A stretch of 64,000 nucleotides of DNA from Candidatus Gottesmanbacteria bacterium RIFCSPLOWO2_01_FULL_43_11b (lineage in GTDB: Bacteria; Patescibacteriota; Microgenomatia; UBA10105; UBA927): the NCBI GenBank assembly GCA_001780985.1, contig MFJV01000001.1, positions 364,049 to 428,048 of the forward strand. Reading direction: 5' to 3'. Position 1 is the stretch's first letter, and the number at the start of each line of letters is the position of its first letter. Shown here piece after piece: positions 1-41,746 of the stretch. The notes below the pieces were generated by a model. The model was not told the origin of the DNA, did not search any database, and saw only the letters and a list, made by a program, of their open reading frames with translations. The translations under genes and the position numbers were made by a program.

Positions 1-3000
1 CGATCGTAGCCAGTCGGGTGACGTCTACACGCGGATTACCAGATACGATTTCAACTCTGTCAATTTGGAATATATTAAGGTCATATGAATCTGGGCTAAA
101 AGACGCTGCAATCATGCCCGGCTGCACTGGTATACCACCGGTATCTACAACTACACCGTTTAGTACAATTAATCTTGAAGGATTAGTAGTTGCCACCGGC
201 GCGGGAGCGACTGCGGGTGGTTGCGGAGGCGGAGGAGCGGGTGGTGGAGCTGACGGGAGATTTTTTTTGGCTTCCGCAACAATTACCCGAGCCGCCATTT
301 CCACAATCTTTTTCATTTGATTTGGAGCTATATCTCCTCGTGCTTTTTCAAGCGACGGTTCAAACTGTATGGATTGATTGATTGCGTCGATGATGCTTCC
401 TGTTACAACCGCCTCGCTATCTCCACGAGTGAGCTCTGTCGTTGCTTGGGCAACAAGCTGTGTTTTTAATCCCGCTAAGTATGATTCAACCAGTAACTCT
501 GGCGCTGATTTCTGTTGCTGCTCACCAAAGTTTTTCATTTCTACCCAAAAGAATTTGTTTGTTTCTTTCCCGCTTGTATCCAAAAGCATTGCCGCAGCAA
601 TGTCTTTCGGCCAAATGAAGCCTGAAAAAGCGCCGACATTCCAAGCGGAGGGAACCGTGTAGATTCTAACTTTCGTCTCAACCCCGTCTATCAATGCCGT
701 TCCTTCAACTTTCTCCTTTGACAAAGCGACGGTAATATCATGACGAACCTGCGTATCTCTATTTTGTGCTAGTTTGGTTCGCATTGCCGCTTGGAAAAGC
801 TGTCTTCCTTTAGTCCCAAATCCGAGAATCGATAGTGTTTTATCCGAGCTTGTTATCGTCTGCAACCGATCAGGTGTAGCTGTCGGCGCAGAGGGTTGAG
901 CTGGCGCGGGTTGAACGGCTAGTTCCGGTGTTTTGGCCGCTGGTGCAGCATGCGATTGTAATAGATTAACAATGGCTACATATTCTGCAGATATCTGATC
1001 CGGTGTTTTATTTGTCGCGTCGATACGTAAATCGTATCCTAAATTAGTCACCGTAGCGCCGTGCTGAAGCAAAATCTGCTTATTTTCCTCCGAAAGAGTC
1101 TTTCCGTCGAAACCTATATCCGTTACGGGCCAACTTTTTCCACTGGCATCCGAATACACAGTTGTAATGTTTTTATTGCGCAATACATTCCCAGCTTGCA
1201 CCAAGGGAGCCTCAAAAATTGCCTCAACAGGTCCTAAGGTATAGGTAATTTTTGCCCGCGCAAAATCATCTTGAATAGCTTTTTCCGTTAAATCTTTGAA
1301 TATCGGATCAGTCCGTAAATACTCTTCATACAGTTTCAAACGTGCATCGGCATCTGATTGTGTATTAATTACGCCCATTGCTGCTTCAACCGGCGCAATC
1401 GTACTCCATGCCACAGGGATAAATTTACTTCCCGCTCCCGGGTACGGATTTGTGACAAATCCAGCCGGCGGCTCATAGGGTTTAATTTGTGTAACTAATT
1501 CAGCAGTTTTTGTACGCGACCATTGCGCAAAGAGCGCAGAGTCAACATCATCATGTTTGATCACTTCTAATTCACTTTGTATAGCATTTGATATAGCGTC
1601 TGTCGTTGTAAAATTGAGAGCTGAAACCCGACTGACTATTTCTGACTGGATTTCTTTGGTAAGGAGGCTATTAAGAATAGTAAATGCATTCGTTCGCTTT
1701 TGTTGAACCGCACGGCCCTCTTTGACAATTTTTGCAACCTCCGATCCCGGATTAAGCCGCTCAACCATAGAGAGGAGCACTTGCGGCCAGCCCGGTGCAG
1801 CAGGTAATACGCGCTCCCCAACCGGCGCTTCTACTGTGCCGATCGCAATCAAAGCGTCGCGACGAGCGCGTGCCAACGGGTACGCGGATTGGCGAAGGCT
1901 AATGGAGAGATTAAGCGCTTCTTGTGCAACTGCCTGCTCTGTCCGAACAGTTGCAATTGCTCCCGTGAGGGTAGCTGGGTACATCTGCATGAATACACGA
2001 TAATCAATGCTTACAAACACATCCCTGTAATCTTCAAATTTCTTGATGCGCGTGTTATTTGCTTCGATAAGCAGTCCTAGTCGGTAATGTTCTACCTCCA
2101 GAGGCGTATCTATCACATTGTCAATAACTCCTGAATCCTCATACTGTTTCCGCTGCGCTTCAAACCGGGCGTTCTCCTCGCGCATTGCAATAATTTCCTC
2201 CAGCCAGTATGTCCGCATCGCCTCGATAAGAGCAGCATTCTTCGGCGTACTTTCAAACTTGTCGAGATCCTTCTGCCATTTGTCAGCTATGTCTCTGGTT
2301 GTATCGCGCCACGCTTTATTTTGCTCATAACCCCATACAGCAATCCCGTAGCCGTCATCAGCAGTCGAGGAAAGATCGCTGTAAAGGTTTTTCCGCGCAG
2401 TGTAATACTCTTGGAGCGCTGCATCTGTAACTGCGCCTGCGTAGTAGCCGATAAGTTGGCTTGCCCAACCGGCAACCTTATCCTGGAACTTTCGTCCTAC
2501 CCCGAAGAACGACGCGAAACGCTGGAGAACTTCCGCGGTATCCGGCTCTGCAGAGAGAGCAGCAAGCTTTGTCTTCTTCTCATTTATTTGATTCGTTACA
2601 GCCGACAGTTTTTGTTGCAGATCAGGAATTTCACCGATGCGTATATCCGGATCCTTAAGTTTTTCGAATTTATCGATTCGAGATTGAAGATTCCCCTGTT
2701 CTCCTTTAACTTCTCCAAGGCTTGCCGCGAGTCGATCATGACGGCGCTTGCTCTGTTGTTTTTGTGCGTCGGCGATGAGTGTCTCCTGCCCTTTCACCTG
2801 CAGTTGCCAGACCGCGATATCAAGTTCGTTCGTTCCAGTCGCAAAATCAACACCGCGAGTAATTAACTGTTGCAGCCGAGCAATTTCTGCAGTCGCACCG
2901 TCGATACGTGCTTGCTCTATCTTGAATGTCGCATCGAGCGGTGTATATTCAGTCTGAAGCTTCCCGACTCTCTCTGTAATATCAGCCAGTCGTTGAGAAA

Positions 3001-6000
3001 GCCGATTGCGTTCTTTTTGTTTTTGAGCAATTATCTTCTCAGTGCTTTTTCTTTCCCGCTCTAACGAAGCCAATTCCCGTTCAAGAGCTCGCCTCCCATA
3101 TAAATCTGGGTCGACAATTGCAGCCCAGACTGCGTCGAGCCCACCGTAAAAGCCTGGCCGATCCGTCACGTCCCACGCTTTGAGACGGTCCTCGAGGAGT
3201 TGTTGTTTTGCCGTAAGTCTCACCTCTGCCTTTTCCTGATTAGCTCGGGCTGTTTCATCGAGCTCGATTCCGTTGAGTTCCAATCGCAGCGCACCGTCTC
3301 GCACAAATTCGGCGAGTGCATTCACTCTCTGGGGAATTCTTCCAATAATGGTCAAAACTCGTGAAATAAATGGCGTCCCGACCTTCTCCTTCGTTTGCTT
3401 CTCAAGATCTGAAATTTGATTGTCGAGAACCTGTACTGCCCGCTGGGCTAACCCAGTCTTGGTCAGCGTTCCGTCAGCGTTAAATAGCGGACCAGCAATA
3501 ACGTCTTTTTGAGCACTCCTCCGGGCGGATTTGAGCTGATCGAGTTTTTTCGAAAGCTGCCCAAGTTCAGCTTTGTTGGTTGCCCGAGAGAGCCACCGCG
3601 TCCAAATGCTGGAACGGAAGGAAGCAACGAAATCTATATAGGCGTGTGACTGTCGCTCACTCCATTTGGTAAGCGTATCGGACATATCGGGAACCAAATC
3701 CCGGGCAAGTTGAGCATTTTGCCTGGTTAAGAATCCGAAAGAAACCGTTGCTGCGCGTGGTGCCCATAAGAGTTGTTTGGTTGTCCATGTTCCTGTTCGC
3801 GAAATCCAAGTTCCGACAACTCGTCCCCCGGCCACAAACCACTCGGCCCCACGCGGATCAAGAGTCTTCCAAAATCCTTTCCAAAGCTCACTGACAAGAT
3901 TGATTTTCTCCGGGGCTGCATCATTGACAACCGGCTCAACAACGGCAATCTCTTTTCTTCTAAATAGATCTCTCAATCGGTCAAAGAGACTCTTTCTTGC
4001 AGGTGTCGCTGCAGTGACTGTTGTCGCAATACTTCGAGATGCAACTGCTTGCGCAATGATTGCCCCGGAAACCTGAGGTGAGTCGAGAATATCGACTGCG
4101 GCATCAAACGTTATTCCTGTCTTAACCACAATTTCGTTGATTGCGCTGTTATAGGGATCAAGGAGCTGGGCTACTATTTCTTGATACGTTCCACCGCTTG
4201 TCAACGCAACTTCAACGGCTTTTGTTTCAAAGTTAGAAACTGCAATAACCATCGCTTCATCAGGAGAAACTAAGGCACCCGGTAGTGCAGTAGAAAGACG
4301 CCTGGAAACATCAGCTCGGTGAACAACATCAAAATTAATCGCATCGACGCTTACTATATCAGACTCTTCTGGTGCAAGCGTTCCTGTAGAAAGAATTCTC
4401 TGGGCAGAAACAATGCCTGAAATAATCTCTACTCGTTGGGAATCAGTCAATAAGATGAGATTTGCACTTCCGTCTGCTGCTTTAGGTAATCCTGCAAGCA
4501 TCGTCCTGGTAGAAGTTATCACCTGATTCAGTCTAACCGGACTAGTGAAATCAACTGCTGGACGAACGACAGCAACAGGTGCAACTCCACCTGGTAGAGG
4601 AAGATCTTCTGTAGAGACAATTGGTTGACGTACGCGAAGCTCTTCGAATACTCTGCTCCACTGGGCTCGAGCTATTTGGTCCTCTGCTCGTGCTCCTCCA
4701 AAGTAGCGCTCGGAAAAATCGCTTGCCGCGTAGCGGTCTGCGAGTAATTCAAGATATTGGTTGTGGCTGGTCGGTTCGGTAACAGGCGTCCCTCCTCGAG
4801 CACCAGCGAGAAGTTCAATAAATTCGTTGTAACTTCGCAAACGAGAAATGCCCAGTTCCCGTTGAAGTTCTGCTATGGGTATGCCGGACTTCTCGCTTGC
4901 CTGACTGAGAATTTTTTCAATACGAATCTGCCCATCCACGACGGTATCGTAGACTGCGCGAAGTCCATCAACAGGTGTTTCGTTAATTCGGGATAATTGA
5001 ATTTGCGCTGTGCGCTCAGACTCAATTCTGGCAGCCTCCATAAGCGCCGTCACTTCGGTACGTGCAGTTCCCGTCACGCGCTTGGTAAGCAGATCAGCAA
5101 GTCTGCTTGTGATATTCTTTGTTACCGCCGTTGCTCCACGAATCGCTCCTCTGGTAATCTCTTCACGGACAAACTCTGTTTGATACTCTCGGAACACCCG
5201 GTCGACGACATTGCTTGCATTGACGCCAGATAGTTGCCTTGGATCATTGACGCGCAACCACTGTTCGTATGATTTTGTTTCTAAAAGTTTGTCAACTTCT
5301 GCATTCGTGTAGCCTTTATCGAGAAGTTCACGTTTTATTGTTGCGCTATCGACGGTGCGGGCCCACACACGATTTCTCGCGGTTTGCTGGATGCTCGTTT
5401 CCAAAAGTGTCCGTTGCCCATTCACATTTACCCAATGAGTATCAAAGAGCGGCGTCATATCAACTTGCTCCACTCTCCCCTTAAAGACGACCATGACCTC
5501 TTCCGGGGTAAGTCTGGTCCCTTTGTATTGATACCCTACGAGAATTTCAGGTCTATTCGGATCAAATTGGATAAATTCCTTCTGCCATAAAGAAATATCT
5601 TTAACTAGTTCTCCCGGGGTAATTTCACCATTCGGCCCAACTTCGACGATTCTGAATCCATCCGCCTCAATGATTCCAAGAACTTTCAGTCTTTTCCCGC
5701 TCGCAGTAAGACTTGTAGCGCGTGATCGAACCACTTCACGAGCGTACAAATCATATGAAATCACATCATCAGCAATAGTAACAACGAGTGCTTTATCTTT
5801 CGGAACCGTTCCCATTCCATTATTGATGAGTGTTGTAGCGCTATCTTCAATAACGAGCTTTGTCGGAGTAGAAATCGGCGGAGACGTATCGCCGAAACGT
5901 GAAAGGCCATTGAGACTCGCAGCAACTTGAGCTGTTGCCGTTGTATGAACCCCTTGCCGGGCAAGAAGTTCAAAGCTGGTAATTTCAATGGACCTCCCTG

Positions 6001-9000
6001 ATATTTCAAGATCCCCCGCTTGTAAGAAACCACGCCGTTCAACGGGAATGCCGGCAGCTTCGAGCATATTTGCCCCTTCTGTTTGAAGAACAATCCTGCC
6101 AACTGCGTCTTGGTACATTTCTCCCGTTTCACCACCGCGATGCGCAAGGGCAATGGTTACCCCGTCGGCACCAATTTTTATACTGTTACCAGGCACCGTG
6201 GAATTATAAATTTGCCAAAATCTTCGCAACCCCTCATAACGAACCGTGAGTGATGCGGCGCTATCTGCAAGCACCGTATCGCTATACCCAGTAGAACGAA
6301 ATGTATCAAAATCAGCAATTACTGTATCAGGGCTACCTGTAAACTTTTGTTTGACAAGATTGAGAGCATCTCGTGCGACTCGATTTTCCGGAATATCAAC
6401 AAGCTTCCCTAACTCAGAATCAACAAGCGCTTCGTAGGAACGGCGAACGAGCGTTGTATCGATAGGTTGAGCAACTTTACCGTTTTCTTTAAAAAGAACC
6501 TGCGTATCCCGACCTTGACTGACGCGCTCGTTATATGCTCTGGCAAACTCTCTGACTGGCTCGAGGCCGAGTACTTCACCGACGATATCAACAACGCGGG
6601 CACCAACAGTCTGACCGAATTTAGACTGCAAACCTGCAAACATTGCAGGATCATTAAGCCGGCTGATTGCAACAGGCGGATCAACAGAGACACTCCATGT
6701 TTTACCGACAAAGGTTTGAATTTCATCGGTGAGCCATTTGTTAAACTCGGGTGCGCCGTTAAAAATCTCGGCAAAGACTTCTGCATGTGGATTATTTGCA
6801 GCAAGCCGTTCTCCGAGAATCTTACCCCACGCGGTGCTATTTATATCCGTGACGACTACAAATCCGCGACCGCCATTTTTGGCGGTGTTGATATACCGTC
6901 GTACTTGAGAAGGATCGACTTTTTCGTTTGTACGTATATCAAACCATCCATTTTGTGAATCAAATCGTAACACTTTCGTCTTGTTAAAAAGCCCGCCGCT
7001 TTTATCTTTAATGAGATTGGCAAACTCTTGAGGAGCATTACCTCCAGGAAAGCTATCAAGCGTAATTCTTCCAAGCTCTGCGTTCCACAAGTCAATGAGT
7101 CGGTGTACAACTGATGTTTTTCCAGCACCGGCGAGTTTTTCGAGCGTGGTCGGGTTATTGGTTGATAAGCCCTCCAAAACAAGTTTGACTTGATCTGGAG
7201 TGAGTGTGACGGGTTTGTCGAACGCCTCGTTTGCAAAAAGGTCAATAAATTTGTTGGCTCTCTCTATAGAACGCGCAGTATACCCATCAATGCCTGATTT
7301 TGCGCCCAAATACCTTCCTTTTTCCCCGATTATTTCTATTGGACCAACACCTTCAACTACCTGCTTTGCGTAGGTATCGACGAGTTTTCCGTAATCTCCG
7401 GTGATGCGGTTGATAATTTGCTGCGGCCCGCGACGTACCGCCGCACCAACTCGATCTAAGAAGTCTCTTATACGGGGCTCTGCCCGTGTTTCTGCTGCTA
7501 CGTGAGGTGCCACTGCTGCAGCAACAGGTTCACCACCAACCTGATGACTTGCCCACGCTGCAATTGTCTCCGGTGTTGAGTAAAATCCGAGTCGCTCGGT
7601 AAGATTGCCGCGAAGATTAAGAGCTTGTGCAACTCTCCCCCTGATCGAGTTTGTGTAGGAAAATTCTAGTTGGAATGCCTGAACACTTTTTTCAATATTT
7701 GTGTATGTTGCTCTCTCCCTGGCAACATCAGTTAACACCCTGGTTACACTTCGGGGGGTAACTCTTTGGAGTTGTTCCATATTGGAAAGTCTCTCTTGAG
7801 CCAAAGTAAGTCTTTTATTTGCTGCCTCAAGCGCCGATGGCTCCCTCCCCGCTCCCCTTAGCTCTTGGGCAACGAGTCGCAATCGTTCAACTTCTCCACT
7901 TAACCGGGTAATTTGCGCATCAAACTGTTCACGCGGGTGTGTAATAAGATAAAGTTCGTCTTCAATAAATTGACGTTCGTTTCCGGATTTAGCTAACTCA
8001 TCGAGTGAGAGTTTTAGCTGTGAGTGTATGCCGCGTTGAATTGCAGTCTGAGTTTTGATTGCAACTTGTTCTTTGACTGCCGTTATCTCTTCCAGTTTTG
8101 CATTGTAGCGACCTTCATATTGAAGTTTCTGCCCTTCGGTAAATCCACCAACATTTTCTTTCGTCAAACGCTCGAATTCTGTTTGAAGTTCTTTCAGTTT
8201 TGCCGATTCTGCTGCCGCTTTACTCGCATCACTTCGTGAAACAGACTGGAGTGCTACTCTTTCTGAAGAAATTTTTGCTTGAACCTCAAGAATTTTACTC
8301 GTTGCCAAGTCAAGACCTCTCGGGAGTATATCGGCTCTTCCTTTTAGTGCTTTATATTCTTTAAGTGCGGCACTCAATTCTTTTTGCGCATTGGTCCATG
8401 ATTCAGGCCTACCCGAGAGCCGTATGCCGTTCGCGTTTCCTTCGACAAAACCTACCTGAAACATTGCTTCTCGAAGCCTTGTGGCAATTTCTTGACGCAG
8501 AGACAGATCGATGGGTTTTTCAACACCGTCTATTTTTACAAGTTTGCCGTTTTCATTTACCCGCAGTTCTTTTGCTAACAGTTCCACCTCCGCAAGTCTC
8601 TCACGCGGCCCTTCACTTACAGTCGGTCTGGTTTCTGCCTGGGCATGGCCTTTGAGAGATAATCCAGCAAATGAAAGCGCCATGAGACAATTTTGATCCG
8701 GCGCTTTTCCTTGAAGTACCGGCGCGCATGCGCTTGCGGCAAATGCGCTGTTAACGGTTTTGTCGGCTCCCGCAATGACATTGGCTTGTGGTCCATAGAT
8801 AAAATTAGAGGGCGCAAATAATCGGTATCCACCCAAAACCGCCATTGTGCTACTTATTGCGCAGTTGACACCATCACCTTTCGAACAAGCTTCGTATGCT
8901 GGTACCCCGAAGGCAACGACCTGCGCTCCACCGAGAACGCGATTGGCAACCGGAGATTGCGTGAGACGAATCAAAGGATTAAACACTGCTCGAAAACCCT

Positions 9001-12000
9001 CTTGAGTCGTAGGTGCTACCTGCCTTCCAATTGCAGCAATTGCTTTTTCTTGCGCGTCTTTGGTAATTGCATCCGTTACTCCCTGTTTAACTGAATTTGC
9101 CGAAACTTTTCCTACTGTTACTACAACTCCAGGTTCAGCTCCAACGAGAGCAAGCGATGTTGCACCCTGAATAAGCGCACTTCCCGCCACAAAAGTCATC
9201 GCACTGCTTCCGGCACAGGAGGCTCCTTGCTCAAACGAACGAATCCCGTAACAAACCTCGGCTGTTTGAGCAAAGCTATCTCCGGTCATCTTTGCAGACA
9301 ACATTGTCGAGACAACTTGAGGACCGACTTTCCAGGTCATAACCGCAGATCCCAACCGCGCCATAGAACCAATCCCCAGCCCCAACGTTGCGGTCTCACC
9401 GACAATTTGGCCAGTCTGCATGAGGCGGCCACTCGTTCCCTCCCACCACGTTGCGAGACTGTGGTCGCCAGCTTGCCACTTTTTATCCGCTTCCCCCGTG
9501 CGAAGCACTCCTCGGATTGAAGACCCATTCGTATGCTGGTTGAGCCACAATCCTGCTTGAACGAGTTGATTATCCCAGTCGATAGATTCTTTTAAGCCGG
9601 AATAGTCAAAACCCAAAAGCACCTGATCAACATGACTAGCTTGGTCACTGACATTGGAGCTTGCTAGAAGGTAATCTATATCATCTTTAACAGTGAGATA
9701 ATCTTGAAATTGACCAACCCGACACTCATCAATATCCGAAATCCCTTGCGATTTGCATTTTTGCATAACCGAAGATTTCTCAAACGATGCGTCATAGTAT
9801 GATTTTGTTTGTGGCGGTAACGAAGATATATATGCATCATAGAAAAGTTTTTGTGTCTCTTTCGTGAGCTCCTTCTGTTCATTCAAACACGTCTCTCTAT
9901 CTGAAATGCCTGTAAATCGAGTGCAACCGCTCGCGCTCGGCTGCGTAACTATTCCTTTCAGAGTTTGTGCGACTGTTGTTGAATCTATCTTTCCGCTTGA
10001 TATACCACGGGAGAGCCAGTTTGGATCATCAGCAAAAAGCGCAGTGATACTCTTCTCAACCGGACTCTGGAATGTTTTCCGAATAAAATCTCCGCTCCAC
10101 CATGGTCCGTCAAGAACAATATCATTTTGTAAATCATACGCAGCAGCACGTTGGATGTTTTGAAAATCTTCAATCGTAACATTTGGGTTTGACTCTCGGT
10201 ACGTTAAGAATGCTTGAGCCACTTCCGGGGCAAAGTTGCTCTTGACATACGAGGTGACGTTCTTGTTGTAGAGTTCGTAAAAATTCTCTTTATCTTCTCT
10301 GCCTTTCTCTCCGCTATCCCAGATCGTTCGGATTTCATACGTGTCTCCCTCTGTCTTAACCGCTTCACGCCTGACATAAAGACCGGTCACTGCGTCCTGC
10401 TCAATATATGATTTACCGGCAATTGCAACGCGTTCAATGCCCGTCGCCGGATCAATAACGCGAGTTCCCTCAACACAATCTCCTTTGCTACAGATTCCTG
10501 AATCACAAGTTTTGTTTATCGTCGCCGTCCCGTGGAGGTTTTTGATGACCGTAGCAACCCCTCCGCCGTCGGGAGTACACTGCGCAATTTTTTCTGGAGC
10601 AAGTTGGATAAACCCAAGCCATTGCTTTGCCGGTGTCACCTTTTGTTCAAATCCGCCGACCGGGGCGGGAATATAATCCGGAAGGAACTCTTCGGGGAGA
10701 ACACCGATGAGAATTTTTTGTGCCGCTGCCGCATCGTCACACTCCCTGCTCTCCCGTCTTTCGGCAAAATTACGAGAAACCGCATCGCGGCAATTTTCGA
10801 TAACGACACTTGCATTGCCGGACTGAAGTGCTTCGAGAATGGGGAGGTACTTTTGCTCTATCTTTTTCCTCGACTCTTCTGCCGCAGCCAGAAGTTTCGG
10901 TATCGCGGCGTCTGCTTCGCTACGTAGATTTTCCGGAAGTTTTGCTCTGTATTTGGCTGCTTCACTTTCATTTCCGGCAATCTTCGCGTTAATGTAGTTT
11001 TCGTAGTTTGTATAGTTGGTTGTGACAGCAACTGCAACTTTCGGATTCCAACTCTTGAGATCACTAAGTACCTGATTTGGATTAACGCATGCTACACCGG
11101 GAGTTTGCTTACATTTCTCCCACTCAAATTTTGCGTTTGCATATTCAACAAAATATTTATTTTGAACATGGTCGGTAAAATTTTCATCTAACGCTTTTTT
11201 ATCTCCGTAGAGTCCCCCTGTTTCAATAAATGCCTTGTTCATTGCCAGTTGATATCCACTGCACCCTATCGACCCAAAGCTTGCCCCGCTTCCGACCTTA
11301 CACTGTTCATATAATTCTTTTTTTTCAAAATATTCCCCAATGGCAAGTTGAGCTTTCAATGGCTGACTTAATTTGGCTTTTTGAACAGAGTTGAGTATTC
11401 CAAGATTACTCAGCGCTTGATCTTGGCACGATGTACTGTTCGCATTTGGCTGCCCCATGCACGTCTCAAATTTTTTCTGAGACTCTGCCAGTGCGTTTTG
11501 TTTTTTTGCATACAAATCAGCCAAACGCTCATTAGTGATTACATAGTACCTGCCTCCCAAAACGAAATATTCACCTCGTTCAAGTTTATTTGCTTCTGTT
11601 CTTGATATTTCCTGACGTGCGTACTCAGGAATAGCATTGGTATCCGGCACACAATATGCTTGGCCAGTACAATCTATCCATTGGAGAAATCCTCCGGAGC
11701 CTTTTCCACAGGCATAGTAATGATCCACGCCTCCCACAACATTACCGATAACAATCGATCCCTCACTGCGTCCGCCGCAATTTCCTCCCGCCGAAGTGTC
11801 TGCCCCTGCTGCCAACAGTTCTTTTTTCTGCTGCTCTTCAAACGGTACACTCTGTACAGCCTCCTGCGTTTTTGATCCTTCATACCAACTCGGTTTATAT
11901 TTTTCCGTAAGATTTTCTTCGGTGACTCCTACATCGAGTGCTGTCAAATCAATATATTCCCCTGTTCCGCCATCACACCCGTAAATGTGATGTGCCTCTC

Positions 12001-12573
12001 CGATGACAATTGCTCCTGCGTCAATTCCACCACAACCCTTATTTCCCCGTTTCAAATCCGGTAGCGTTGGGGTTTGCGGAGGTTGCGGGGTTTCAACCGG
12101 AACTGGGGTTTCAGGTGTCATTTTTTCAGATTCTTTCGGAGTTGTACTAGGAATAACAGGCTCAAGAATCTCTTCTTTCCGGCACATACGTAAATCCGCT
12201 CCGGTAAAACCAGCGCAAGGGTCTATTGGGGTTGTTGGCTGTTGGGGCTCTTCAGCCGGTTCCGGCTTTTCTGGTTTCTCCGGCTTGGGTTCTCGTTTCT
12301 CATCGCCTTTATACGATCCGCCCGTTGATTCTTTTGGAACCCACGCTAAACTTCGAATATCAAACGTCTGATTCCGCACACTTTGTACTACAAAAACCAT
12401 GCTGGTGGAAAATACGACAAGTAGTAAAAGAGGGAGAAGGTGAATGATGCCACGTTGACTATTGCTTTCTATAAAGAAATGTATCAATCGTGAGGATTTT
12501 TGGAATGAAATGTGAAATTTCCTAATGTTAATAAATACTGCAACCCGGGCAAGAATAATTTGCATGCGCAAAA
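1..12573 (-). CDS. Giant secreted/surface-type multidomain protein of unknown function, partial. It continues past window position 1, so more than 4,190 aa lie inside the window. Start is ambiguous among ATG 12573, ATG 12555, TTG 12467 and ATG 12400.
   Basis: By-eye reverse-complement translation gives one continuous frame. ATG at 12400 and the in-frame Met at 316 share the same frame (both coordinates are 1 mod 3). The ORF track reports no minus-strand ORF in that frame anywhere in 320..12400, so the frame has no internal stop in the window; other frames show only short shadow ORFs. N-terminus: ...RGIIHLLPLLLLVVFSTSMVFVVQ (hydrophobic anchor), then EKREPKPEKPEKPEPAEEPQQPTTP, then two Cys modules (GCGGIDAGAIVIGEAHHIYGCDGG and NCGGRSEGSIVIGNVVGGVDHYYACGKGSGG). 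Later regions are Gly/Ala-rich hydrophobic and coiled-coil-like. AGGGAAG lies 7 nt upstream of ATG 12573. Confidence 0.75.
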
Positions 12574-12651
12574 AACTCGACATTATCGAGCTTCCCTATT
12601 ATTACTATGGATAACAAATGTAATCATGTCAAGAACGTGAAAACTGGGGGT

Positions 12652-12943: not shown

Positions 12944-13016
12944 GGGCCTGTAGCTTAGTTGGTAGAGCGCCGCATTCGCATTGCGGAGATCACCGGTTCG
13001 ACTCCGGTCAGGTCCA
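12944..13016 (+). tRNA. tRNA-Ala (anticodon CGC)
   Basis: Cloverleaf readable: acceptor GGGCCTG/CAGGTCC with G3:U70 Ala identity pair; anticodon stem CCGCA/TGCGG with loop TTCGCAT; T-arm GGTTCGACTCC. Confidence 0.85.
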
Positions 13017-13021
13017 CAAAA

Positions 13022-13092
13022 GGGCCCGTCGTATACCGGTAGTATGACTCCATGGCATGGAGTAGAAAGGGGTTCGATTCCCCTCGGGTCCA
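13022..13092 (+). tRNA. tRNA-Ala (anticodon GGC)
   Basis: Acceptor GGGCCCG/CGGGTCC with G3:U70; anticodon stem ACTCC/GGAGT with loop ATGGCAT; T-arm GGTTCGATTCC; D-arm needs G-U pairs. Confidence 0.75.
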
Positions 13093-13093
13093 C

Positions 13094-15672: not shown

Positions 15673-17703
15673 TCAGGGCAAGACATCAACCTGATAGATA
15701 ACCGTCTCACCAGACCGAAATGCTTCGTATCCGAGAATTGAAAATTTCTCTTCGTTAAGATTTTGATACTTTTCCCGTTCGAGGGTGCCGACAACAACAT
15801 AGAGAACGTTAAATTTACCGAGTAGTTCTCGCGTAAGATCAGTATTATCCGCTTCGTAAATCAAGCGCACAATCTCGCGCCTCGGCGAGACTACATCGTA
15901 ACTTCCTCGCCACAGCCATTCATGAACAGCCCACCCAATAACCGTCGGACTACCGGTAAAGGCAGAAAAACGGGCGTAATCCGTATAACTATCCCCATCT
16001 GCCTCAACAAGTATTATTTGGTCACTGGGTTCTGTGTTCTGAGTTCTTAGCCACTGTATGGCAGCATAATCATCAGGATATTCCCGTTCCAACCAGCTCA
16101 GTCCGTAAATTCCTTCATAATTTTTCAGGCTGTTAAAGTAGCTCCGGACGCTAAATATTGGATATATGGAAACTAACAAAAGTTGGGGGATAAGAAATAC
16201 GAAAAAAAGTTTTTTCCGAATCTTCACAATTACATATGCAGCAATAATTGAAAATATAATAAATGCCTGATAGCCGAGTTTAAACATTGTGTTACTTCGA
16301 AAATGCGCCGGATATATATCTTTGAAATAAAAAAATTCAGGGAAAATAATCAGTGCCAAAGAGAATATAAAGAACACTTTTAGTATTCTCTCGTTTAGAT
16401 TACTCTTTTGCTTTATATGTGAGGTTTCAGAAAAAAATAACCAATACCCGCAGTAAAGAAAAAATCCCCATAGGAGCATCATCATCCACAGCGGTGACCG
16501 CTGACATTTTTCAATCGTTTCAAAAATAATAGGACCGATTTTCGTATTTTGTAAAAACGCCGGCGGACAGTTCACTGCAAGACCATTAACGAAAGAGTCA
16601 AAATGAAAAAGGAATGGTAAACTTGTGACTATTGCGGCAATTAACACAGTGACTATAGCGCTCCCCTTCTCATACAACCGACCGATAGAGCGTATGATGG
16701 TGACGATCGCAAACAAACCAAAGTAAATTGGGCCGTCTAAGGCGTTGGTCATAAGGAGAATTCCGCACAAAAATCCATAAAAAATAGCATTTCCCTTTTG
16801 AATAAGAAGGGCTATAGCCAGAAGCGTAAACGGAATGGAGAGTACATGGCCATGGACGTCTGATACGACAAAGGAGTAACTGGGAAATTCATGAATTGTG
16901 AACGGAATAAAACGGGTTGCATTTGCATACCAATACGTATTTAATCCCTCTATTGTCCAACCAATATTCCAAAACGGTGCGACATTGTCTCCTAAATACC
17001 CCTTAGTAAAGGCATAGATTGTCTGCATGTTCCCTGCAAAAGTTACGAGAAATGCAGTTAATAACCCACCCCAAATTTTTCCGGTCAACTGCTTCCCTAT
17101 TGAAAAACTCATGGTGAAACAGAAGGCAAAAATCGTAGCGAGCATGAGATTAAATGTATACGCAAGGCTCTGACCGGACAATTTCGTTAACACCGCAGTA
17201 ACAAGATGCCCAAAATAATAGTAATTAACAGGATCTCCCGCATACCACATATCCGGAGGGGGGAAAACCTGCCTGCCGGCAGGCAGGTATCCGGAGTTGA
17301 GAATTGATTGCATGAAGCCAAAATCCATGAATTTCTCGAGTCCCCGGATAGACGGCTCATGCGCTTTAACCCAGGTCCAAAAAAGTAGTGCAAAAAAGAA
17401 AAAAAATTCTTCAAAAAGAATTAAACGGTTCTTTTTTGAAGCTTTTCCATGGAATCGAAAACTCAAAAGAAATAGAGCACCTAAAGAAATGAGAGTCGTT
17501 ACATTAGTAAATGGGGCAATCTTCAGAGTTCCCAACACATAGACAACCCAAGATACAAGTGCGATCCCCACTGCTTTACCAAACAAATACCCTTCATCAA
17601 ACCAGGATGAAAAAAGTCTTCGTGTCAGAGGGTATGCAGCTGCACCAAAAAGCAGCAGTGTCCCCCACCACCGTACAACAATCCAAAAATCCGACAGAGG
17701 CAT
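15673..17703 (-). CDS. DUF2298 / Chlor_Arch_YYY-family polytopic membrane protein (putative glycosylation-related)
   Basis: 676-aa multi-TM protein containing the NYYYFGH motif typical of the YYY domain family. Confidence 0.6.
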   Translation of the reverse strand: MPLSDFWIVVRWWGTLLLFGAAAYPLTRRLFSSWFDEGYLFGKAVGIALVSWVVYVLGTLKIAPFTNVTTLISLGALFLLSFRFHGKASKKNRLILFEEFFFFFALLFWTWVKAHEPSIRGLEKFMDFGFMQSILNSGYLPAGRQVFPPPDMWYAGDPVNYYYFGHLVTAVLTKLSGQSLAYTFNLMLATIFAFCFTMSFSIGKQLTGKIWGGLLTAFLVTFAGNMQTIYAFTKGYLGDNVAPFWNIGWTIEGLNTYWYANATRFIPFTIHEFPSYSFVVSDVHGHVLSIPFTLLAIALLIQKGNAIFYGFLCGILLMTNALDGPIYFGLFAIVTIIRSIGRLYEKGSAIVTVLIAAIVTSLPFLFHFDSFVNGLAVNCPPAFLQNTKIGPIIFETIEKCQRSPLWMMMLLWGFFLYCGYWLFFSETSHIKQKSNLNERILKVFFIFSLALIIFPEFFYFKDIYPAHFRSNTMFKLGYQAFIIFSIIAAYVIVKIRKKLFFVFLIPQLLLVSIYPIFSVRSYFNSLKNYEGIYGLSWLEREYPDDYAAIQWLRTQNTEPSDQIILVEADGDSYTDYARFSAFTGSPTVIGWAVHEWLWRGSYDVVSPRREIVRLIYEADNTDLTRELLGKFNVLYVVVGTLEREKYQNLNEEKFSILGYEAFRSGETVIYQVDVLP

Positions 17704-17748
17704 ATGGAGAGATTATACCTCGTGTTACAATAATGCACATGGCAAAAA

Positions 17749-19334
17749 GAACAGAGTGGTTGATCTTGGCTTCTATACTTGTTATTGGAGCTTTATTCCG
17801 TTTTTACAATCTCAATTGGGATCAAGGACACTATTTTCACCCTGACGAACGAAATATAGCAGTTGCAGTAGGCAAAATTCGCTTTTTTTCCCAAATGAAT
17901 CCGGATTTTTTCGCGTACGGTAGTGTTCCTGTTTACCTTTACCGATCAGCCGCGGATATCGTCGTAAAAATAACCGGTGATGTTGATTGGACGAGAGACT
18001 GGGGAAAAATAAATCTTATTGGGCGGCATTTCTCCGCGCTCTTTTCAACAATAACAGTTCTTCTTGTATACCTCTTGACCCGAAAAATTCTCATACCCAC
18101 CGCAGCACTTGTTGCCGCATGGGTTACTGCAACAACACCGATACTTATTCAACAAGCGCATTTTAGTGTTACTGAAAGCATGCTCGCATTCTGGGTAGTA
18201 CTCCTCACCTATCTCACTGTTCAAAGAAAAAATCCTATTATTTTAGGTTGCATGTTTGGGCTTAGTGTGGCAACAAAAATGTCTGCCTTAAGCTTCGGAA
18301 TCATACCAATTGCCATGTTCATTTGGAAAAAACAAACCAAACGAATATTCATTTTTCTCCTGACTGCATCGCTTATCTATGGAATACTCTCTCCCTACAC
18401 ATTTTTGCGCTGGGATAAATTCATGGAATCGATGAACTATGAAGGCGGCATTATCACGGGGAAACTCCTGGTTGTTTACGTGTACCAATTCCTGCAGACA
18501 CAACCATACCTCTACCAGCTCTCTCAACTTCCCTATACCCAGGGGTATGTTCTCGCAGGATTAAGCATTGCCGGATGTATTTTGCTTATCATAAACACTA
18601 CAAAACACAAAAAATGGCCTATTGTAATGGTCTTTCTCTGGCCTTTACTCTATTTTCTCTACGTCGGGAGCTGGTTTACAAAATTCGTCCGCTACTTTGT
18701 ACCTCTCTATCCCTTTTTATCTATTGCGGCGGCGTATTTTATTGCGAATCTTAATAAAAACATTAAGTGGGTATTCCTCGCAGTCCTTGTGATTAGTCCG
18801 TTTCTTCGAAGTATTGCATTTATGCATATCTATGCTTCCCCACAAACGCGAATTGCCGCATCCGACTGGATTTATGAAAACGTTGCGAAAAAATCCACGA
18901 TACTCACGGAACATTGGGATGATGGATTGCCTCTCTCATTTTCTCCACAAAAAGATCCCGGAATTTACCAAACCCGACAGCTGACCATTTACGAGCCGGA
19001 TAATTTAGAAAAAATTGACTACTATGCTGAAAATCTAAGTCAGGCAGACTTTCTGTTTATAAATAGTCGCAGGCTCTACGGAACGCTCATGCATCTATCC
19101 AATCGCTATCCTATTACAAGCAAGTACTACAAATTATTATTTAATGGATCTCTCGGATACAAAAAGGTGGCAGAATTTACCGTTTACCCCACCCTAAAAC
19201 TTGGCTCTTGGGTATTTGAGTTTAATGATGACAATAGTGAAGAAAGTTTTCAGGTGTATGATCATCCTAAGGTATTCATTTTCGAAAATGTTGCTCACCT
19301 CTCAAAAGAACAATTGAAGACACAATTCTTATGA
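17749..19334 (+). CDS. GT-C family membrane glycosyltransferase, PMT/ArnT (GT39)-like
   Basis: Multi-TM protein with first-loop HYFHPDER (DE-type motif). Start chosen at MAKRTEW (17749) because the longer track ORF (17511) overlaps the divergent DUF2298 gene. Confidence 0.6.
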
Positions 19335-27335: not shown

Positions 27336-27367
27336 GACAAAAACGCTTTTATCCTTGAGTCCCCCGG

Positions 27368-27486
27368 CCTCGACCTATCTTCCCGGATCCTTGCGGAACA
27401 GGTATTGTTGGCGCTGACGTGTTTCACTTCCCAGTTCGGAATGGAATAGGGTGGTTCCACGTCGCTCAAGAGACCGAAAGGCTCAA
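27368..27486 (-). rRNA. 5S rRNA (boundaries approximate)
   Basis: Reverse complement matches conserved 5S core CCGAACUGGGAAGUGAAACACGUCAGCGCCAACAAUACCUG; helix I pairing not cleanly resolved. Confidence 0.7.
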
Positions 27487-27842
27487 AAATAAAATAGTAA
27501 ACGAGTAGTTGTGCACAAGGGAGAATCCAATAGAAATCCTTTTTCTGACTCTTTGTTCTCCGCAACTTTGACCGATTAGTACGAGTAAGCTAAATACCTT
27601 ACGGTACGTACACTCCTCGCCTATCAAACCAGTAATCTACTGGTGGTCTAAAAGATTCCTCATCTTGGGGTGGGCTTGGCGCTTGAGATGCTTTCAGCGC
27701 TTATCCCGACCGGATATAGCTACCCTGCGATGCTAGCCCAAGGGCTAACAACAGGCACACCAGGGATCCGTCCCTCCTGGTCCTCTCGTACTGAGGAGAG
27801 CTCCCCTCAAGAATCAAAACGCTCGCACTGGATAGAGACCGA

Positions 27843-28151
27843 CAATTTGTTACAAAGTTCTTGCTGGCTCCAATTCTTATTGGAACAGCTTAGAAATTTG
27901 GATACCCTTTATGGGTATAGTCTGCATGTCGCCATGCAGTTCGGACTATATCTTCCCCCTCTTTTTCCGTAAAAAGAGCGGGGTCTGACATATAGTCTCT
28001 GAGGGTTTCCGTCATTTGACGGATCTTCCCTGCTGATTATCTGCACCTAAAGATTATTACTTAAAAAGTACTTTAGGATACTCAGAGTTTCCAGCATATA
28101 GTCAGATTTATAGACAGCTCTTTATATAGTAATGTCAACTACTATAGGTCT
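27843..28151 (-). mobile_element. Group I intron in 23S domain V, inserted between GAGACAGU and UCGGUC (classic homing-site region around E. coli 2585-2593)
   Basis: Exon sequence resumes exactly across the insertion. The intron contains an S element (GAAGAUAUAGUCCGAAC) and an R element (CCUCAGAGACUAUA) able to form P7. Confidence 0.7.
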
Positions 28152-28251
28152 ACTGTCTTACGACGTTCTGAACCCAGCTCGCGTACCCTTTTAACCGGCG
28201 AACAGCCGGACCCTTGGGACCTTCTCCAGCCCCAGGATAGGATGAGCCGAC

Positions 28252-28502
28252 CATGTTTACCCACTGTTACCAGTGGCATAGACTATACCATCACCCCGAT
28301 TAAATCGGGGGCTCAGCAATATGATATCAATTGATATCTCATCCGTCAGATGACGGAATCAGTCGTTACGGGGTCACGAAGACTTCCCTCGGTATTGCCC
28401 TTTGACCGGGTTCAATGGTCAAGTCGGGTTTCACCGATATGAGCTGAATTATTCAATAAGAGATTACTCTCTTAGGCGACATTCCCGGTAAATACCGGGA
28501 TT
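28252..28502 (-). mobile_element. Group I intron in 23S peptidyl-transferase region, inserted between CUCGAU and GUCGGCUC (about E. coli U2504/G2505)
   Basis: Exon continuity GGCACCUCGAU | GUCGGCUCAUCC; intron carries GGUAUAGUC and ACGACUGA variants of the S/R elements. Confidence 0.65.
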
Positions 28503-28549
28503 ATCGAGGTGCCAAACCGCCTCGTCGATATGGACTCTCGGAAGCGATC

Positions 28550-28582
<33 letters not shown>

Positions 28583-28908
28583 AAGCCCGGTCCCTCCCAT
28601 GAGGGATCCGAGGATCACTAACACCCACTTTCGTGTCTGTTCGACTTGTAAGTCTCACAGTCAAGCTGGCTTATCGCGTTTGCACGACACGCCTCGATTT
28701 CCATCCGAGGTTAGCCAACCTTTGTACGCCTCCGTTACATTTTTGGAGGCAACCTCCCCAGTTAAACTGCCCACCAGACAGTGTTCTCCTCCGATATTTT
28801 TATGTCGGAGTAAGTAAGATTTCCCCATTTCGAAGAGTGGTATTCCATGTTTCGTCCGAAGACTCCCACCTATGCTCGACAGTCAAAATAAGGTCCTCAG
28901 TGCCAAGT

Positions 28909-28939
<31 letters not shown>

Positions 28940-29049
28940 AAGTGTGAGTAGGCCGCATCTTCACAGCCATTTCAATTTCGCCGGGTAGCAGTTCAAGACA
29001 GTCACTAAGTCATTCTACCTTTCGTGCGGGTCGGAACTTGCCCGACACA

Positions 29050-29314
29050 ATGTGTTACCCCTGATTGTGATCAGAGTGCCTTTCTAGTTCCAGTCAAGGC
29101 TCTCCGTATCGCTACGGAGTTCAGACTATATCATCATCCCAATACTATTGGGAGTTTGGCGTCTAGTCGTTGAGGGGTCCGTCAGCCGACGGACTTCCCT
29201 GCTGATTGACTCCACCGAACAGATTATTACGTTATCGTACTGTCGGATACTTAAGTTATTCCAGCATATAGCCAAATATTCAATCCACTTTACAGTGGAA
29301 GGTCCCCTGTCGCG
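29050..29314 (-). mobile_element. Group I intron in 23S domain IV, inserted between AAAUUCCU and UGUCGGG (about E. coli 1943/1944)
   Basis: Exon continuity GGUAGCGAAAUUCCU | UGUCGGGCAAGUUCCGACC; shares R/S elements and the motif AAUAUUUGGCUAUAUGCUGGAA with the neighbouring intron. Confidence 0.65.
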
Positions 29315-29340
29315 AGGAATTTCGCTACCATAGAACAGTT

Positions 29341-29768
29341 CACTTTGTTATACACCGATTGGTTACGGCTCTCATGGTCGCCCATGAGGTCGGACTATAT
29401 CATTCCGCCGGTTGGCGGATTTGGCGTATAGTCTCTGAGGATAAAACTATGAATTTATGTTAAATCTACTTGAGGCTCCGCTTCTACTTTTTCTTCAATT
29501 GGAGTTTCCCATGTTTTTTTAGGAAATAAACGTTGTTTTATTGCGTTTACAACATCTTTAAATCCAAATTGGCTTTTCGGCCATGAATCCGGATCTCCTA
29601 AATTTAATGGTTCGTCCTCAAGTCTAATGTTCATAGTAGTCTTTCCTGCTGATTTTCCGCAGTTGGCGCATTTTTACCACTTTTTGAGTGGTAGCGCAAC
29701 ATTCTATCCTTTTTCAGGACGGATCTTCCAGCATATAGCCAAATTTTACAACTACAAAACTGTATTTT
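29341..29768 (-). mobile_element. Group I intron in the 23S helix 69 loop (L1917-type site: GUAACUAU | AACUGUUC)
   Basis: Exon continuity across the H69 loop; S/R P7 elements present (GAUAUAGUCCGACC / CCUCAGAGACUAUACG); contains a 59-aa ORF. Confidence 0.7.
29455..29634 (-). CDS. Small intron-encoded ORF (59 aa, MNIRLEDEPLNLGDPDSWPKSQFGFKDVVNAIKQRLFPKK...), possibly a remnant homing-endonuclease/maturase gene
   Basis: Wholly inside the L1917 intron. Its ATG overlaps (ATGA) the stop of the track ORF 29631..29834, which runs into exon sequence. No known nuclease motif recognised. Confidence 0.25.
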   Translation of the reverse strand: MNIRLEDEPLNLGDPDSWPKSQFGFKDVVNAIKQRLFPKKTWETPIEEKVEAEPQVDLT

Positions 29769-31210: not shown

Positions 31211-31249
<39 letters not shown>

Positions 31250-31455
31250 GCATTCGTGTATTTAGCCTTGGAGGATGGTTCCCCCAGATTCCCACAGGAC
31301 CTTGATGTCCCATGGTACTTAGGTATCCCGCAGAGGGGACTTGAATTTCGAATACGAGGCTTTCACTCTCTTTGGCTACCTATTCCAAGGTATTCTTCTA
31401 TTCTCATCCCATCCCTTATGCGGGACCCTACAACACCCTTGCGGGTTTAGGCTGC

Positions 31456-31486
<31 letters not shown>

Positions 31487-31935
31487 TCAATTGTATTTTT
31501 TTTCCTCACCCTACTGAGATGTTTCAGTTCAGGTGGTGCCCAGTAATATTGCTATTTCAACCTTGCGGCTGACTTTACAACATACTTTCCCTTGCGGGAT
31601 GGATTGCTCCATTCGGAAACCGTCGGATCGCGGGATTATGGCTCCTCCCCGACGACTATCGTGGTCATATACGTCCTTCCTCGGCACGAACGCCCAAGGC
31701 ATTCATTATCGGCTTTATAGCGTTGCGAGGAACAAAGAGTTCCCCAGCTATTTAATATAAATATTATTAAATATAAAAATATTAAGCTGCAAAAAGGATC
31801 CACATATGGATTCCCCCTTGCGGCACAACTACTCTATGTACAGTATTTTGGAATTTCACCTCACCTGTACAGTCGTTAACTTGTTAAAGTGCTAGCCTGC
31901 CCGCTAGCGCCTGAGCGCAAGCGATGGCCGGCGGG

Positions 31936-32008
31936 TGGACCTGACCGGATTCGAACCGGTGACCTCAGCATTGCAAATGCTGCGCTCTACCAGCTAAGCT
32001 ACAGGCCC
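31936..32008 (-). tRNA. tRNA-Ala (anticodon UGC), first gene of the tRNA-23S-5S operon
   Basis: Reverse complement GGGCCTGTAGCTTAGCTGGTAGAGCGCAGCATTTGCAATGCTGAGGTCACCGGTTCGAATCCGGTCAGGTCCA; G3:U70; anticodon loop TTTGCAA. Confidence 0.85.
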
Positions 32009-41676: not shown

Positions 41677-41702
41677 GGAACGTATTGTATTACATCTCGC
41701 TC

Positions 41703-41732: not shown

Positions 41733-41746
41733 TATGCTTTATTACT

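Follow-up and report, generated by a model that had tools for sequence, protein, structure and literature searches.

Two related cysteine-containing modules near the N-terminus of a giant, probably envelope-anchored protein of Candidatus Gottesmanbacteria

Reading frame, start and leader of the giant gene

We analyzed a 64,000-nt stretch of Candidatus Gottesmanbacteria bacterium RIFCSPLOWO2_01_FULL_43_11b (NCBI GenBank assembly GCA_001780985.1, contig MFJV01000001.1, positions 364,049 to 428,048 of the forward strand), hereafter called the window, and focused on the 5' part of a giant open reading frame (ORF) on its minus strand. The ORF is stop-free over 12.58 kb from an ATG at 12583-12581 to window base 2, where it is cut by the window edge, and its length is therefore at least 4,194 codons. 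The giant gene has on its 5' side two tRNA-Ala genes as well as genes for a LysM/M23 peptidase, for Rho and for a DUF2298 membrane protein. The encoded protein begins with a positively charged N-region, a hydrophobic segment and a short conserved motif, which are followed by two Pro-rich linkers, two related Cys-containing modules, a long region with further Cys pairs and a Cys-free remainder. The coordinates of these features are listed in Table 1.

Table 1. Features of the giant gene and its product, the thiol-oxidation genes of the window, and the extent of homologue matches (aa, amino acids)
Feature	Window position	Strand	Remarks
ATG start codon of the giant ORF	12581..12583	-	Read from the sequence; gene call of L004 agrees
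Shine-Dalgarno-like AGGGAAG	12591..12597	-	7 nt ahead of ATG 12583; overlaps TAG 12598-12596
Promoter-like TTGACA-17 nt-CATAGT, 5' of the giant gene	12604..12632	-	Putative; consensus scan, 10/12 matches
N-region, aa 1-45	12449..12583	-	Net positive: 7 K/R, 1 D/E
Hydrophobic segment IIHLLPLLLLVVFSTSMVFVV, aa 46-66	12386..12448	-	Signal anchor or signal-peptide core
Juxtamembrane motif QSVRNQTFDIRSLA, aa 67-80	12344..12385	-	Conserved among homologues
Pro/Glu/Lys-rich linker 1, aa 95-122	12218..12301	-	Translation
Small Cys loop CAGFTGADLRMC, aa 123-134 (C123-x10-C134)	12182..12217	-	Between the linkers
Pro/Thr-rich linker 2, aa 141-177	12053..12163	-	Translation
Module 1 CGGIDAGAIVIGEAHHIYGCDGGTGEYIDL, aa 184-213	11945..12034	-	Two Cys; related to module 2
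Inter-module segment, aa 214-268	11780..11944	-	Invariant G, V, L, T, P, W, T positions; predicted helix
Module 2 CGGRSEGSIVIGNVVGGVDHYYACGKGSGGFLQWIDCTGQAYC, aa 269-311	11651..11779	-	Four Cys; related to module 1
Remaining Cys-paired region, aa 312-1299	8687..11650	-	11 further near-neighbour pairs
Cys-free remainder, aa 1300-4194	2..8686	-	Coiled-coil rich; no recognised domain (Pfam, NCBIfam, PDB)
VKOR, CTWC	50105-50524	+	Pfam VKOR 4.2e-24
DsbA-like thioredoxin, CPAC, N-terminal hydrophobic segment	50521-51117	+	Thioredoxin_4 2.7e-21; DSBA 1e-11
Leader alignment, window protein			IIHLLPLLLLVVFSTSMVFVVQSVRNQTFDIRSLA
Leader alignment, P0002 (with L001 upstream reading)			FIHLLPLVLLAVFAASIFVVVGQVGRSEQIADTRSLA
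Leader alignment, P0003			FVQVLPLVLLAIFASSIFVVVGQVAREQQDVRSRA
Leader alignment, P0001			FVQFLPLILLALFAAATFVIVRQVQVQQEDIRSRA
Match of L002/P0003 (positional orthologue)			Window aa 10-80, 121-510, 685-818 (BLAST/tblastn)
Match of P0002			Window aa 156-541 (BLAST/tblastn)
Match of P0004, furthest reach			To window aa 1722 (BLAST/tblastn)

Homologous proteins (P numbers) and loci (L numbers) were collected for comparison. An exhaustive HMMER scan with aa 110-1300 as a single-sequence query against 1.84 billion representative proteins (E up to 1e-3) returned only 19 relatives. Ten of the 19 were looked up; all are recorded as 'hypothetical protein', and the named sources were all Candidatus Gottesmanbacteria or 'Patescibacteria group'. 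A search of metagenomic contigs added one further partial locus (L003), and no relatives were found in the contigs of GTDB species representatives. A homologue search with a word prefilter gave no proteins for aa 1-720, for the module-pair alignment or for aa 1721-2480; since the exhaustive scan did detect homologues, these blanks are put down to the prefilter and not to a real lack of relatives. In the metagenomic locus L002, the gene order DUF2298, Rho, LysM/M23, giant gene is preserved. Because this protein-coding gene order is shared, P0003, the giant protein of L002, is the positional orthologue of the window protein.

A preliminary description of this DNA, made from the sequence alone, had noted that the frame stays open above an ATG at 12400 up to a further ATG preceded by AGGGAAG, which it placed at 12573, and that this start would add a signal peptide or signal anchor. 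There is no ATG at 12573; the codon meant is the one at 12583-12581, a slip of 10 nt. The description otherwise fits the sequence, since no in-frame stop occurs in 12583-12400, AGGGAAG precedes the upstream ATG, and all quoted peptides match the minus-strand translation without a difference. The closest in-frame stop 5' of ATG 12583 is the TAG at 12598-12596. The duplex formed with the anti-Shine-Dalgarno sequence was best at ATG 12583 (-4.8 kcal/mol) among the in-frame start candidates, the other ATG, GTG and TTG codons within 12583-12379 reaching -2.7 kcal/mol or weaker. The gene call on record in an independent assembly (L004) begins at the same base. A promoter-like site ends 21 nt upstream of ATG 12583, in a consensus scan that gave 3 sites in the region versus 1.9 expected. 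ATG 12400 encodes Met62 and thus falls within the hydrophobic stretch. Because the hydrophobic segment and the next 14 residues are conserved in the homologues of other genomes, translation must begin upstream of Met62, and the longer N-terminus, with its positive N-region and hydrophobic stretch, is supported as the real one.

The start contexts of two related loci were also compared. L001 (474-490) and L002 (7226-7242) have an identical context, AAACCAAC-GTG-CC, which differs from that of the giant gene in the window, AGGGAAGCTCGATA-ATG. The gene call of L001, which uses a TTG start, is probably too short because the ORF is open 5' of the called TTG. In L001 (519-32397), the gene of the 7,292-aa homologue ends 18 nt before another giant gene, which lies on the same strand and encodes at least 6,923 aa.

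The hydrophobic segment consists of 21 uncharged residues with a Kyte-Doolittle 19-residue mean of 1.73, and it contains the sole window above 1.6 across the 4,194 aa. Apart from this one strong peak, the hydropathy profile shows a region of moderate hydrophobicity, rich in Gly and Ala, at aa 1060-1310. Seven K/R and one D/E precede the segment, and three K/R and two D/E are found in the 24 residues after it; the net charge of +6 ahead of the segment predicts an N-in/C-out insertion. The pattern [FI][IV][HQ].LPL.LL..F[AS][AST][ST].F[VF]V is shared by P0001, P0002 (with the upstream reading of L001) and P0003, and looser versions were seen in P0013, P0014 and P0015. At an equal distance from the hydrophobic segment, homologues carry the juxtamembrane motif as Q..(D/T)(I/V/T)R(S/G/N)(R/L)A, with the version ELRQFA in P0013 and L003, and the motif was not found in the remaining ORFs of the 64-kb window. 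A leader of similar arrangement to that of the window protein is present also in P0013, P0014, P0015 and L003.

An anchored N-terminus is the reading that we prefer, and a cleavable Sec signal peptide, which would be cut after a small-x-small triplet or after R-S-L-A80, is its closest competitor, possible but clearly less likely. Cleavage would release the ectodomain or leave it held only by the later hydrophobic region. The positive N-region is followed by a 13-residue core (IIHLLPLLLLVVF) and then by S-T-S (S59-T60-S61), to which A-A-S, A-S-S and A-A-T correspond in P0001, P0002, P0003 and P0013; the juxtamembrane motif, moreover, terminates in a conserved x-[SGN]-x-A. By eye, the -3/-1 rule is satisfied by S-T-S within the core as well as by S-L-A80 beyond it. 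However, the triplet runs on into conserved, strongly hydrophobic residues (MVFVV, IFVVV, TFFVI), which makes one continuous 21-residue stretch of helix length, and A80 lies 14 residues past the hydrophobic core, which is far for signal peptidase I.

The module pair and its relatives

Between the leader and the modules, the window protein has two linkers separated by a small Cys loop. Homologues carry Pro/Thr-rich linkers of very different lengths at the site of linker 1, and both Cys of the loop align to Cys 460 and Cys 472 of P0003. No DNA-level tandem repeat was found beneath the linker or the modules. The preliminary description had listed an anchor, one Pro/Glu-rich linker and two modules; the second linker (aa 141-177), the loop C123-x10-C134 and the conserved inter-module segment had gone unmentioned.

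The two modules are related, as that description had proposed. Their local BLOSUM62 score was 72, compared with 28.6 ± 5.4 for shuffled sequences, none of which reached 72 in 5,000 trials, and the modules are 40% identical within the family alignment. The common pattern given for them, C-G-G-x5-6-[IV]-V-I-G-x6-7-Y-x-C-x-G-G, is broadly shared but had to be corrected in two places: the distance from V-I-G to Y is 5 residues in module 1 and 9 in module 2, and module 2 ends with C-G-K-G instead of C-x-G-G. The lower limit of the region, set at 11690, also proved too high, in that module 2 runs about 40 nt lower and its fourth Cys (C311) lies past C305, at which the pattern had been ended. In an alignment of 12 copies, the invariant columns were the first Cys (C1), the Gly after strand 1, the second Cys (C2) and the Gly of the next turn, and the aromatic position after strand 2 was variable (Y/F/V/R). 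The window protein contains exactly two copies as judged by a hidden Markov model (HMM) of the module. A candidate third module at aa 669-703 was not detected by this HMM.

The module recurs in other giant proteins from the candidate phyla radiation (CPR). The ordered arrangement of module 1, connector and module 2 was found in P0002 (7,292 aa) and P0003 (3,178 aa), and also in P0015/P0020 (677 aa); the contig of L003 stops after module 1. A single copy of the module 2 type is present in P0001, P0013 and P0019, and P0008 has a divergent copy. Module 1 is kept in P0002, P0003, P0015 and L003 at 42-65% identity. The mean identity was 54% among copies of module 1, 38% among copies of module 2 and 27% between the two types, indicating that the duplication predates the family and that the pair is one unit. 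In the short relative P0015, the leader and the module pair are followed by Pro/Thr linkers, further Cys elements and a Peptidase_C70/C39_2-like domain of papain fold; its gene lies amid housekeeping genes. Past window aa 1722, the furthest point matched by any homologue, no likeness was found by BLAST or tblastn, and profile tests of the downstream part were negative.

AlphaFold2 predicted three beta strands per module in both runs performed. The model of the whole unit (175 aa, four-sequence alignment) had a predicted local distance difference test score (pLDDT) of 56 overall and 70-83 over module 1, and the model of module 2 (12-row module alignment) had a pLDDT of 76.9 and a predicted template modelling score of 0.58. 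The helix between the modules comes from a low-confidence model.

No known domain was recognised in the preliminary description, and our searches gave the same answer. Neither Pfam, NCBIfam nor the PDB sequences gave a significant match to the whole protein, and searches of sub-regions and of all module copies against Pfam at E up to 10 were negative or sub-threshold. In Foldseek, the best values were E=1.6 for the 175-aa model against PDB, E=0.95 for the module model against PDB (a fibronectin type I pair) and E=0.19 against BFVD, with none lower for either model. The module profile had a lone match among PDB sequences, the protein CbpD (7sqx_A, residues 317-340, E=0.15). No description of the module or of the protein family was found in the literature.

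The CbpD match raised the question of carbohydrate binding, because it falls in the C-terminal chitin-binding part of that protein and includes a common pattern, G-T-V-V-x-G-...-Y-x-C. On this reading, the modules would be divergent hairpins of the carbohydrate-binding module (CBM) families 5/12/73 (chitin-binding domain type 3), and they would bind a polymer containing N-acetylglucosamine, for example peptidoglycan or a glycan on the surface of a host. We consider both the assignment and the ligand improbable. CBM5/12 domains are three-stranded modules of about 45 residues; the likeness to CBM5/12/73 (1ED7; 7SQX) lies in this size, in the three-stranded sheet and in a G-x-x-V-...-G-...-Y-x-[AC] hairpin, and the family member P0015 joins the module pair to a papain-like peptidase. 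The CbpD match is nevertheless not significant, none of the 12 module copies matched a Pfam CBM at E up to 10, and the Foldseek search of PDB with the module model returned no CBM. Moreover, the modules have a different Cys/Gly signature and have not kept the conserved surface Trp/Tyr residues by which CBM5/12 domains bind, whereas the CBM5/12 alignment has invariant W, Y, Y and W. Comparison of the module profile with an alignment of verified PDB sequences (1ED7, 4ILV, 9JT0) by hhalign gave a probability of 0.3% over 8 columns, and CBM5/12 homology was rejected on this result. Glycan binding in the manner of a CBM is compatible with the anchored, disulfide-stapled reading as a function, but not as homology.

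The fibronectin type I domain (PDB 3EJH), the top Foldseek match in PDB of the module model (E=0.95, TM 0.45, not significant), offers an analogy at most. Like the modules, fibronectin type I domains are disulfide-stabilised all-beta mini-domains of about 45 residues that occur in tandem and extracellularly. They differ in being eukaryotic, in their two-strand plus three-strand architecture and in the lack of any sequence likeness; their disulfides connect Cys 1-3 and 2-4, whereas module 1 here has one Cys pair.

Cysteine pairing and thiol-oxidation genes

All 30 Cys residues of the window protein fall within aa 123-1299 (chance ~5e-16), and the C-terminal 2,895 residues contain none. They make up 15 near-neighbour pairs, 13 of them spaced 8-24 residues and two spaced 5-6 residues, with 13-184 residues between pairs. 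The pairs of aa 312-1299, which is the part of the protein most widely common to the homologues, are mostly arranged as helix, C-x(4-24)-C loop and helix, and this part ends in the Gly/Ala-rich hydrophobic region (~aa 1060-1310). In the long relatives checked (P0002, P0003, P0009, P0017, P0018 and P0019), the Cys residues likewise stop soon after the central hydrophobic region; P0013 and P0014 are exceptions in which a few later Cys are retained. P0002 has no Cys beyond residue 1795 of 7,292, that is, in its last ~5,497 residues, FHA domains included. The domains found in the Cys-free part of relatives are FHA (P0002) and a methyltransferase (P0009).

The Cys residues are also conserved in pairs. 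When aligned with P0001-P0004, those of the window protein were all matched by Cys, bar two small register shifts, and each of the four gain or loss events affected the two partners at once. Only homologues have the pairs at window positions 329/339 and 720/726, which the window protein lacks, P0002 has one extra pair, and the third and fourth Cys of the module (C3 and C4) occur in all copies of module 2 and in no copy of module 1.

Genes for the oxidation of thiols are found in the same window, namely a VKOR gene and a gene for a DsbA-like thioredoxin (Table 1), as well as two genes for DsbD/CcdA-like membrane proteins. With these genes, the organism can oxidise exported cysteines. Because of the paired conservation of Cys and the VKOR/DsbA genes, we read the modules as held by disulfides: they are probably disulfide-stapled extracellular units at the base of an N-terminally anchored envelope protein. 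Exported proteins in bacteria that use VKOR/DsbA for oxidative folding, reportedly described by Dutton and colleagues in 2008, provide a parallel in the even Cys count, the sequence-adjacent pairs and the exported location, besides the VKOR and DsbA-like genes themselves. This likeness concerns a general property of a proteome and not a domain family, and it is extreme here (30 Cys in 1,300 aa, then 0 in 2,895 aa).

The preliminary description had left the choice between disulfide and metal stabilisation of the modules. Binding of zinc or another metal by the Cys residues and the His-His of module 1, which would make the modules zinc-knuckle or zinc-ribbon-like, is in our view very unlikely. 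Module 2 does have four Cys, the last two of which form CxxC in several homologues (CPGC, CSDC, CSYC), and it gave a sub-threshold match to the GRF zinc finger PF06839 (E=0.021, 15.3 bits, cutoff 25.9). However, module 1 has two Cys only, and its His residues are missing in P0015 and in module 2 of P0003, P0015, P0001, P0019 and P0013. The modules further follow a secretion-type hydrophobic segment and stand in a run of 15 near-neighbour Cys pairs in a genome with VKOR/DsbA, and C3 and C4 appear together irrespective of C1 and C2, which is the behaviour of two separate disulfides. The disulfide half of the earlier proposal is thus supported, and the metal half is not. Finally, the idea that the likeness of the modules is due to chance or to a mis-called ORF can practically be dismissed, given that no shuffle reached the observed score, that both modules are kept in order in independent metagenomic proteins, and that the ORF is open over its whole 12.58 kb, with a syntenic orthologue adjoining the same DUF2298-Rho-LysM/M23 genes.

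Several observations were made on other parts of the protein. Three consecutive elements of ~55 residues occupy aa ~345-500 (11100-11560, minus strand), with the Cys pairs C375/C386, C428/C441 and C491/C499, and each reads aromatic-x-x-K...[FYW]-E-x-C, then a 7-12-residue loop, C and a helix; their likeness was below significance in self-comparison. The segment at aa ~1060-1310 (8687-9400, minus strand) is rich in Gly, Ala and Ser and has three C-x(7-12)-C loops, each before a hydrophobic helix-like segment. It is the most widely conserved segment (P0001, P0004, P0006, P0011, P0012, P0013, P0016 and P0019) and may be membrane-embedded.

A SecA-like ATPase was also considered, on the basis of GxGKT/DE.. 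motifs noticed by eye in P0002, P0003 and the window protein, and was unsupported by Pfam, PDB profile and hhalign searches. Neither the window protein nor the GxGKT regions of P0002/P0003 matched SecA_DEAD at E up to 10, and the PDB profile search gave nothing but noise. The window motif LAGAGKTS (aa 1816-1823) is not a canonical GxxxxGK[ST] Walker A, and the chance expectation of a bare GxGK[ST], calculated from residue frequencies for the length and composition of the window protein, is ~0.16.

Neighbouring genes and proposed role of the module pair

The remaining features of the window are described here briefly. The tandem tRNA-Ala pair (anticodons CGC and GGC) lies at 12944-13093 on the plus strand, the two genes 4 nt apart and divergent from the giant gene. 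The ORF of the DUF2298 protein (15673-17703, minus strand) and a divergent PMT_2 glycosyltransferase-like ORF (17511-19334, plus strand) overlap by ~190 nt at their 5' ends, and therefore at least one of the listed starts is probably too far upstream. A 23S rRNA gene at 27362-32008 (minus strand) spans 4.17 kb and has two group I introns (27922-28180 and 29102-29361); a 5S rRNA gene comes after it and a tRNA-Ala(TGC) gene before it, with no 16S rRNA gene adjacent, so that the window holds one 5S rRNA and three tRNA-Ala genes in total. A gene for a PIN-domain protein (PIN_3, E=1e-19; 35887-36291, minus strand) adjoins an unannotated ORF of 207 aa, between glycolysis genes (GAPDH, PGK) and a glutamate dehydrogenase gene, and the two are possibly a toxin-antitoxin pair. 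Envelope redox and metal genes are clustered at 50105-51117 (plus strand), 40654-41835 (minus strand), 42386-44479 (plus strand) and 44977-45813 (plus strand). They comprise the VKOR gene overlapping that of the DsbA-like thioredoxin, two genes for DsbD/CcdA-like proteins, one of which is fused to a cupredoxin-like domain, and a gene for a heavy-metal P-type ATPase with an HMA domain.

We propose, with a probability of roughly 0.6, that the region encodes the start of a giant, N-terminally anchored envelope protein of at least 4,194 aa with a disulfide-stapled module pair, from an uncultured member of the Gottesmanbacteria living in groundwater. The reading frame, the relatedness of the repeats, their conservation, the paired behaviour of the Cys residues and the presence of VKOR/DsbA were directly observed; from them we infer the topology, the disulfide connectivity and a wall-spanning role of the linkers. 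Translation would start at ATG 12583, and the positive N-region would remain in the cytoplasm. The segment aa 46-66 would be inserted via the Sec pathway with its C-terminal side out and serve as a signal anchor, its removal as a signal peptide being the less likely alternative. The two Pro-rich linkers may serve as extended spacers across the cell envelope and hold out a conserved unit of ~150 residues, in which a short connector with a helix joins module 1 to module 2. Each module is predicted to be a three-stranded antiparallel beta mini-domain in which a disulfide would join the Cys before strand 1 to the Cys ending strand 2, C184 to C203 in module 1 and C269 to C292 in module 2, and module 2 would have a second, short-range disulfide (C305-C311). 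Oxidation would be carried out by the VKOR/DsbA pair of the organism. The module pair would thus be the first of 15 disulfide-closed elements (aa 123-1299) in an exported, membrane-proximal part of ~1,200 residues. As to function, its most likely role would be that of a rigid, protease-resistant element for binding or docking to a component of the envelope or of the surface of a partner cell. Such a role is speculative; it is plausible because this leader-plus-pair cassette also occurs in fusion with a papain-like peptidase that is secreted.

Several points weigh against this proposal. The exact start is less certain than the anchor and could be an internal codon 5' of the hydrophobic segment, because the 43-residue N-terminal extension is not significantly conserved with that of P0003 (score 18, shuffle mean 16.5). 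Signal peptidase could cut at the conserved small-x-small triplet in mid-stretch (STS, AAS, ASS). The disulfide connectivity is deduced from sequence adjacency and co-occurrence only, and the AlphaFold models are based on 4 and 12 sequences and are of moderate confidence only. Cytoplasm-type domains (FHA, methyltransferase) are present in the Cys-free C-terminal parts of relatives, which makes any overall topology of these proteins tentative. No ligand or fold relative was found, and binding is therefore guesswork.

Giant proteins of ultra-small bacteria with a predicted cell-surface role have been described by West-Roberts et al. (2023; 10.1101/2023.11.21.568195). Those proteins, mostly of Omnitrophota and often longer than 30,000 aa, contain numerous transmembrane regions and in most cases a divergent SecA_DEAD domain; the word 'cysteine' does not occur in that report. 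The window protein resembles them in its very long ORF, in its origin from an ultra-small, probably host-dependent bacterium, in its hydrophobic or transmembrane segments, in its N-terminal region without recognised domains, in its largely unannotatable sequence and in its predicted cell-surface role. It differs in having no detected SecA_DEAD or other Pfam domain and only one strong hydrophobic peak, and it is defined by its conserved leader, its module pair and its strict partition of Cys.

Polymorphic toxins (CdiA, Rhs, LXG) combine a conserved N-terminal targeting region with a variable C-terminus. Similarly, the giant proteins studied here share an N-terminal leader, the module pair and the Cys-paired region, and they are unrelated beyond aa ~820 (the syntenic orthologue) or aa 1722 (the closest homologue). 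In contrast to the toxins, no toxin or immunity domain and no known secretion-system marker was found, the 3' end lying beyond the window, and the variable parts are thousands of residues long, not a few hundred. It would be a long shot to regard the leader, the module pair and the Cys-paired region as a portable 'export and docking' cassette of CPR-specific polymorphic giants engaged in an undescribed form of effector delivery. The absence of Cys from the hypervariable C-terminal parts (2,895 aa here, ~5,500 aa in P0002) would then be maintained because these parts pass, threaded, across the oxidising envelope to or into a host cell. If true, this would represent an undescribed effector-delivery system of episymbiotic bacteria.

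On present evidence, the anchored protein proposed above represents no new mechanism and is kin in kind to disulfide-rich extracellular mini-domains and to the giant envelope proteins of ultra-small bacteria. The module is a real, conserved and very rare small domain with no detectable relatives, found in a CPR-restricted family of giant proteins, and thus a candidate new domain family. A life attached to other cells is assumed for CPR bacteria (Patescibacteria), whose largest genes have hardly any annotation. For one such gene, the analysis provides a corrected start, a likely topology of the first 1,300 residues and a conserved two-module unit that can be expressed. The family-wide rule that paired Cys occur only in the N-terminal part, with none later, can serve to recognise relatives and to tell exported from non-exported parts. 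Because the leader-plus-module cassette is portable, being found also on a papain-like peptidase, it offers a concrete handle on how surface proteins are displayed and targeted in these organisms.

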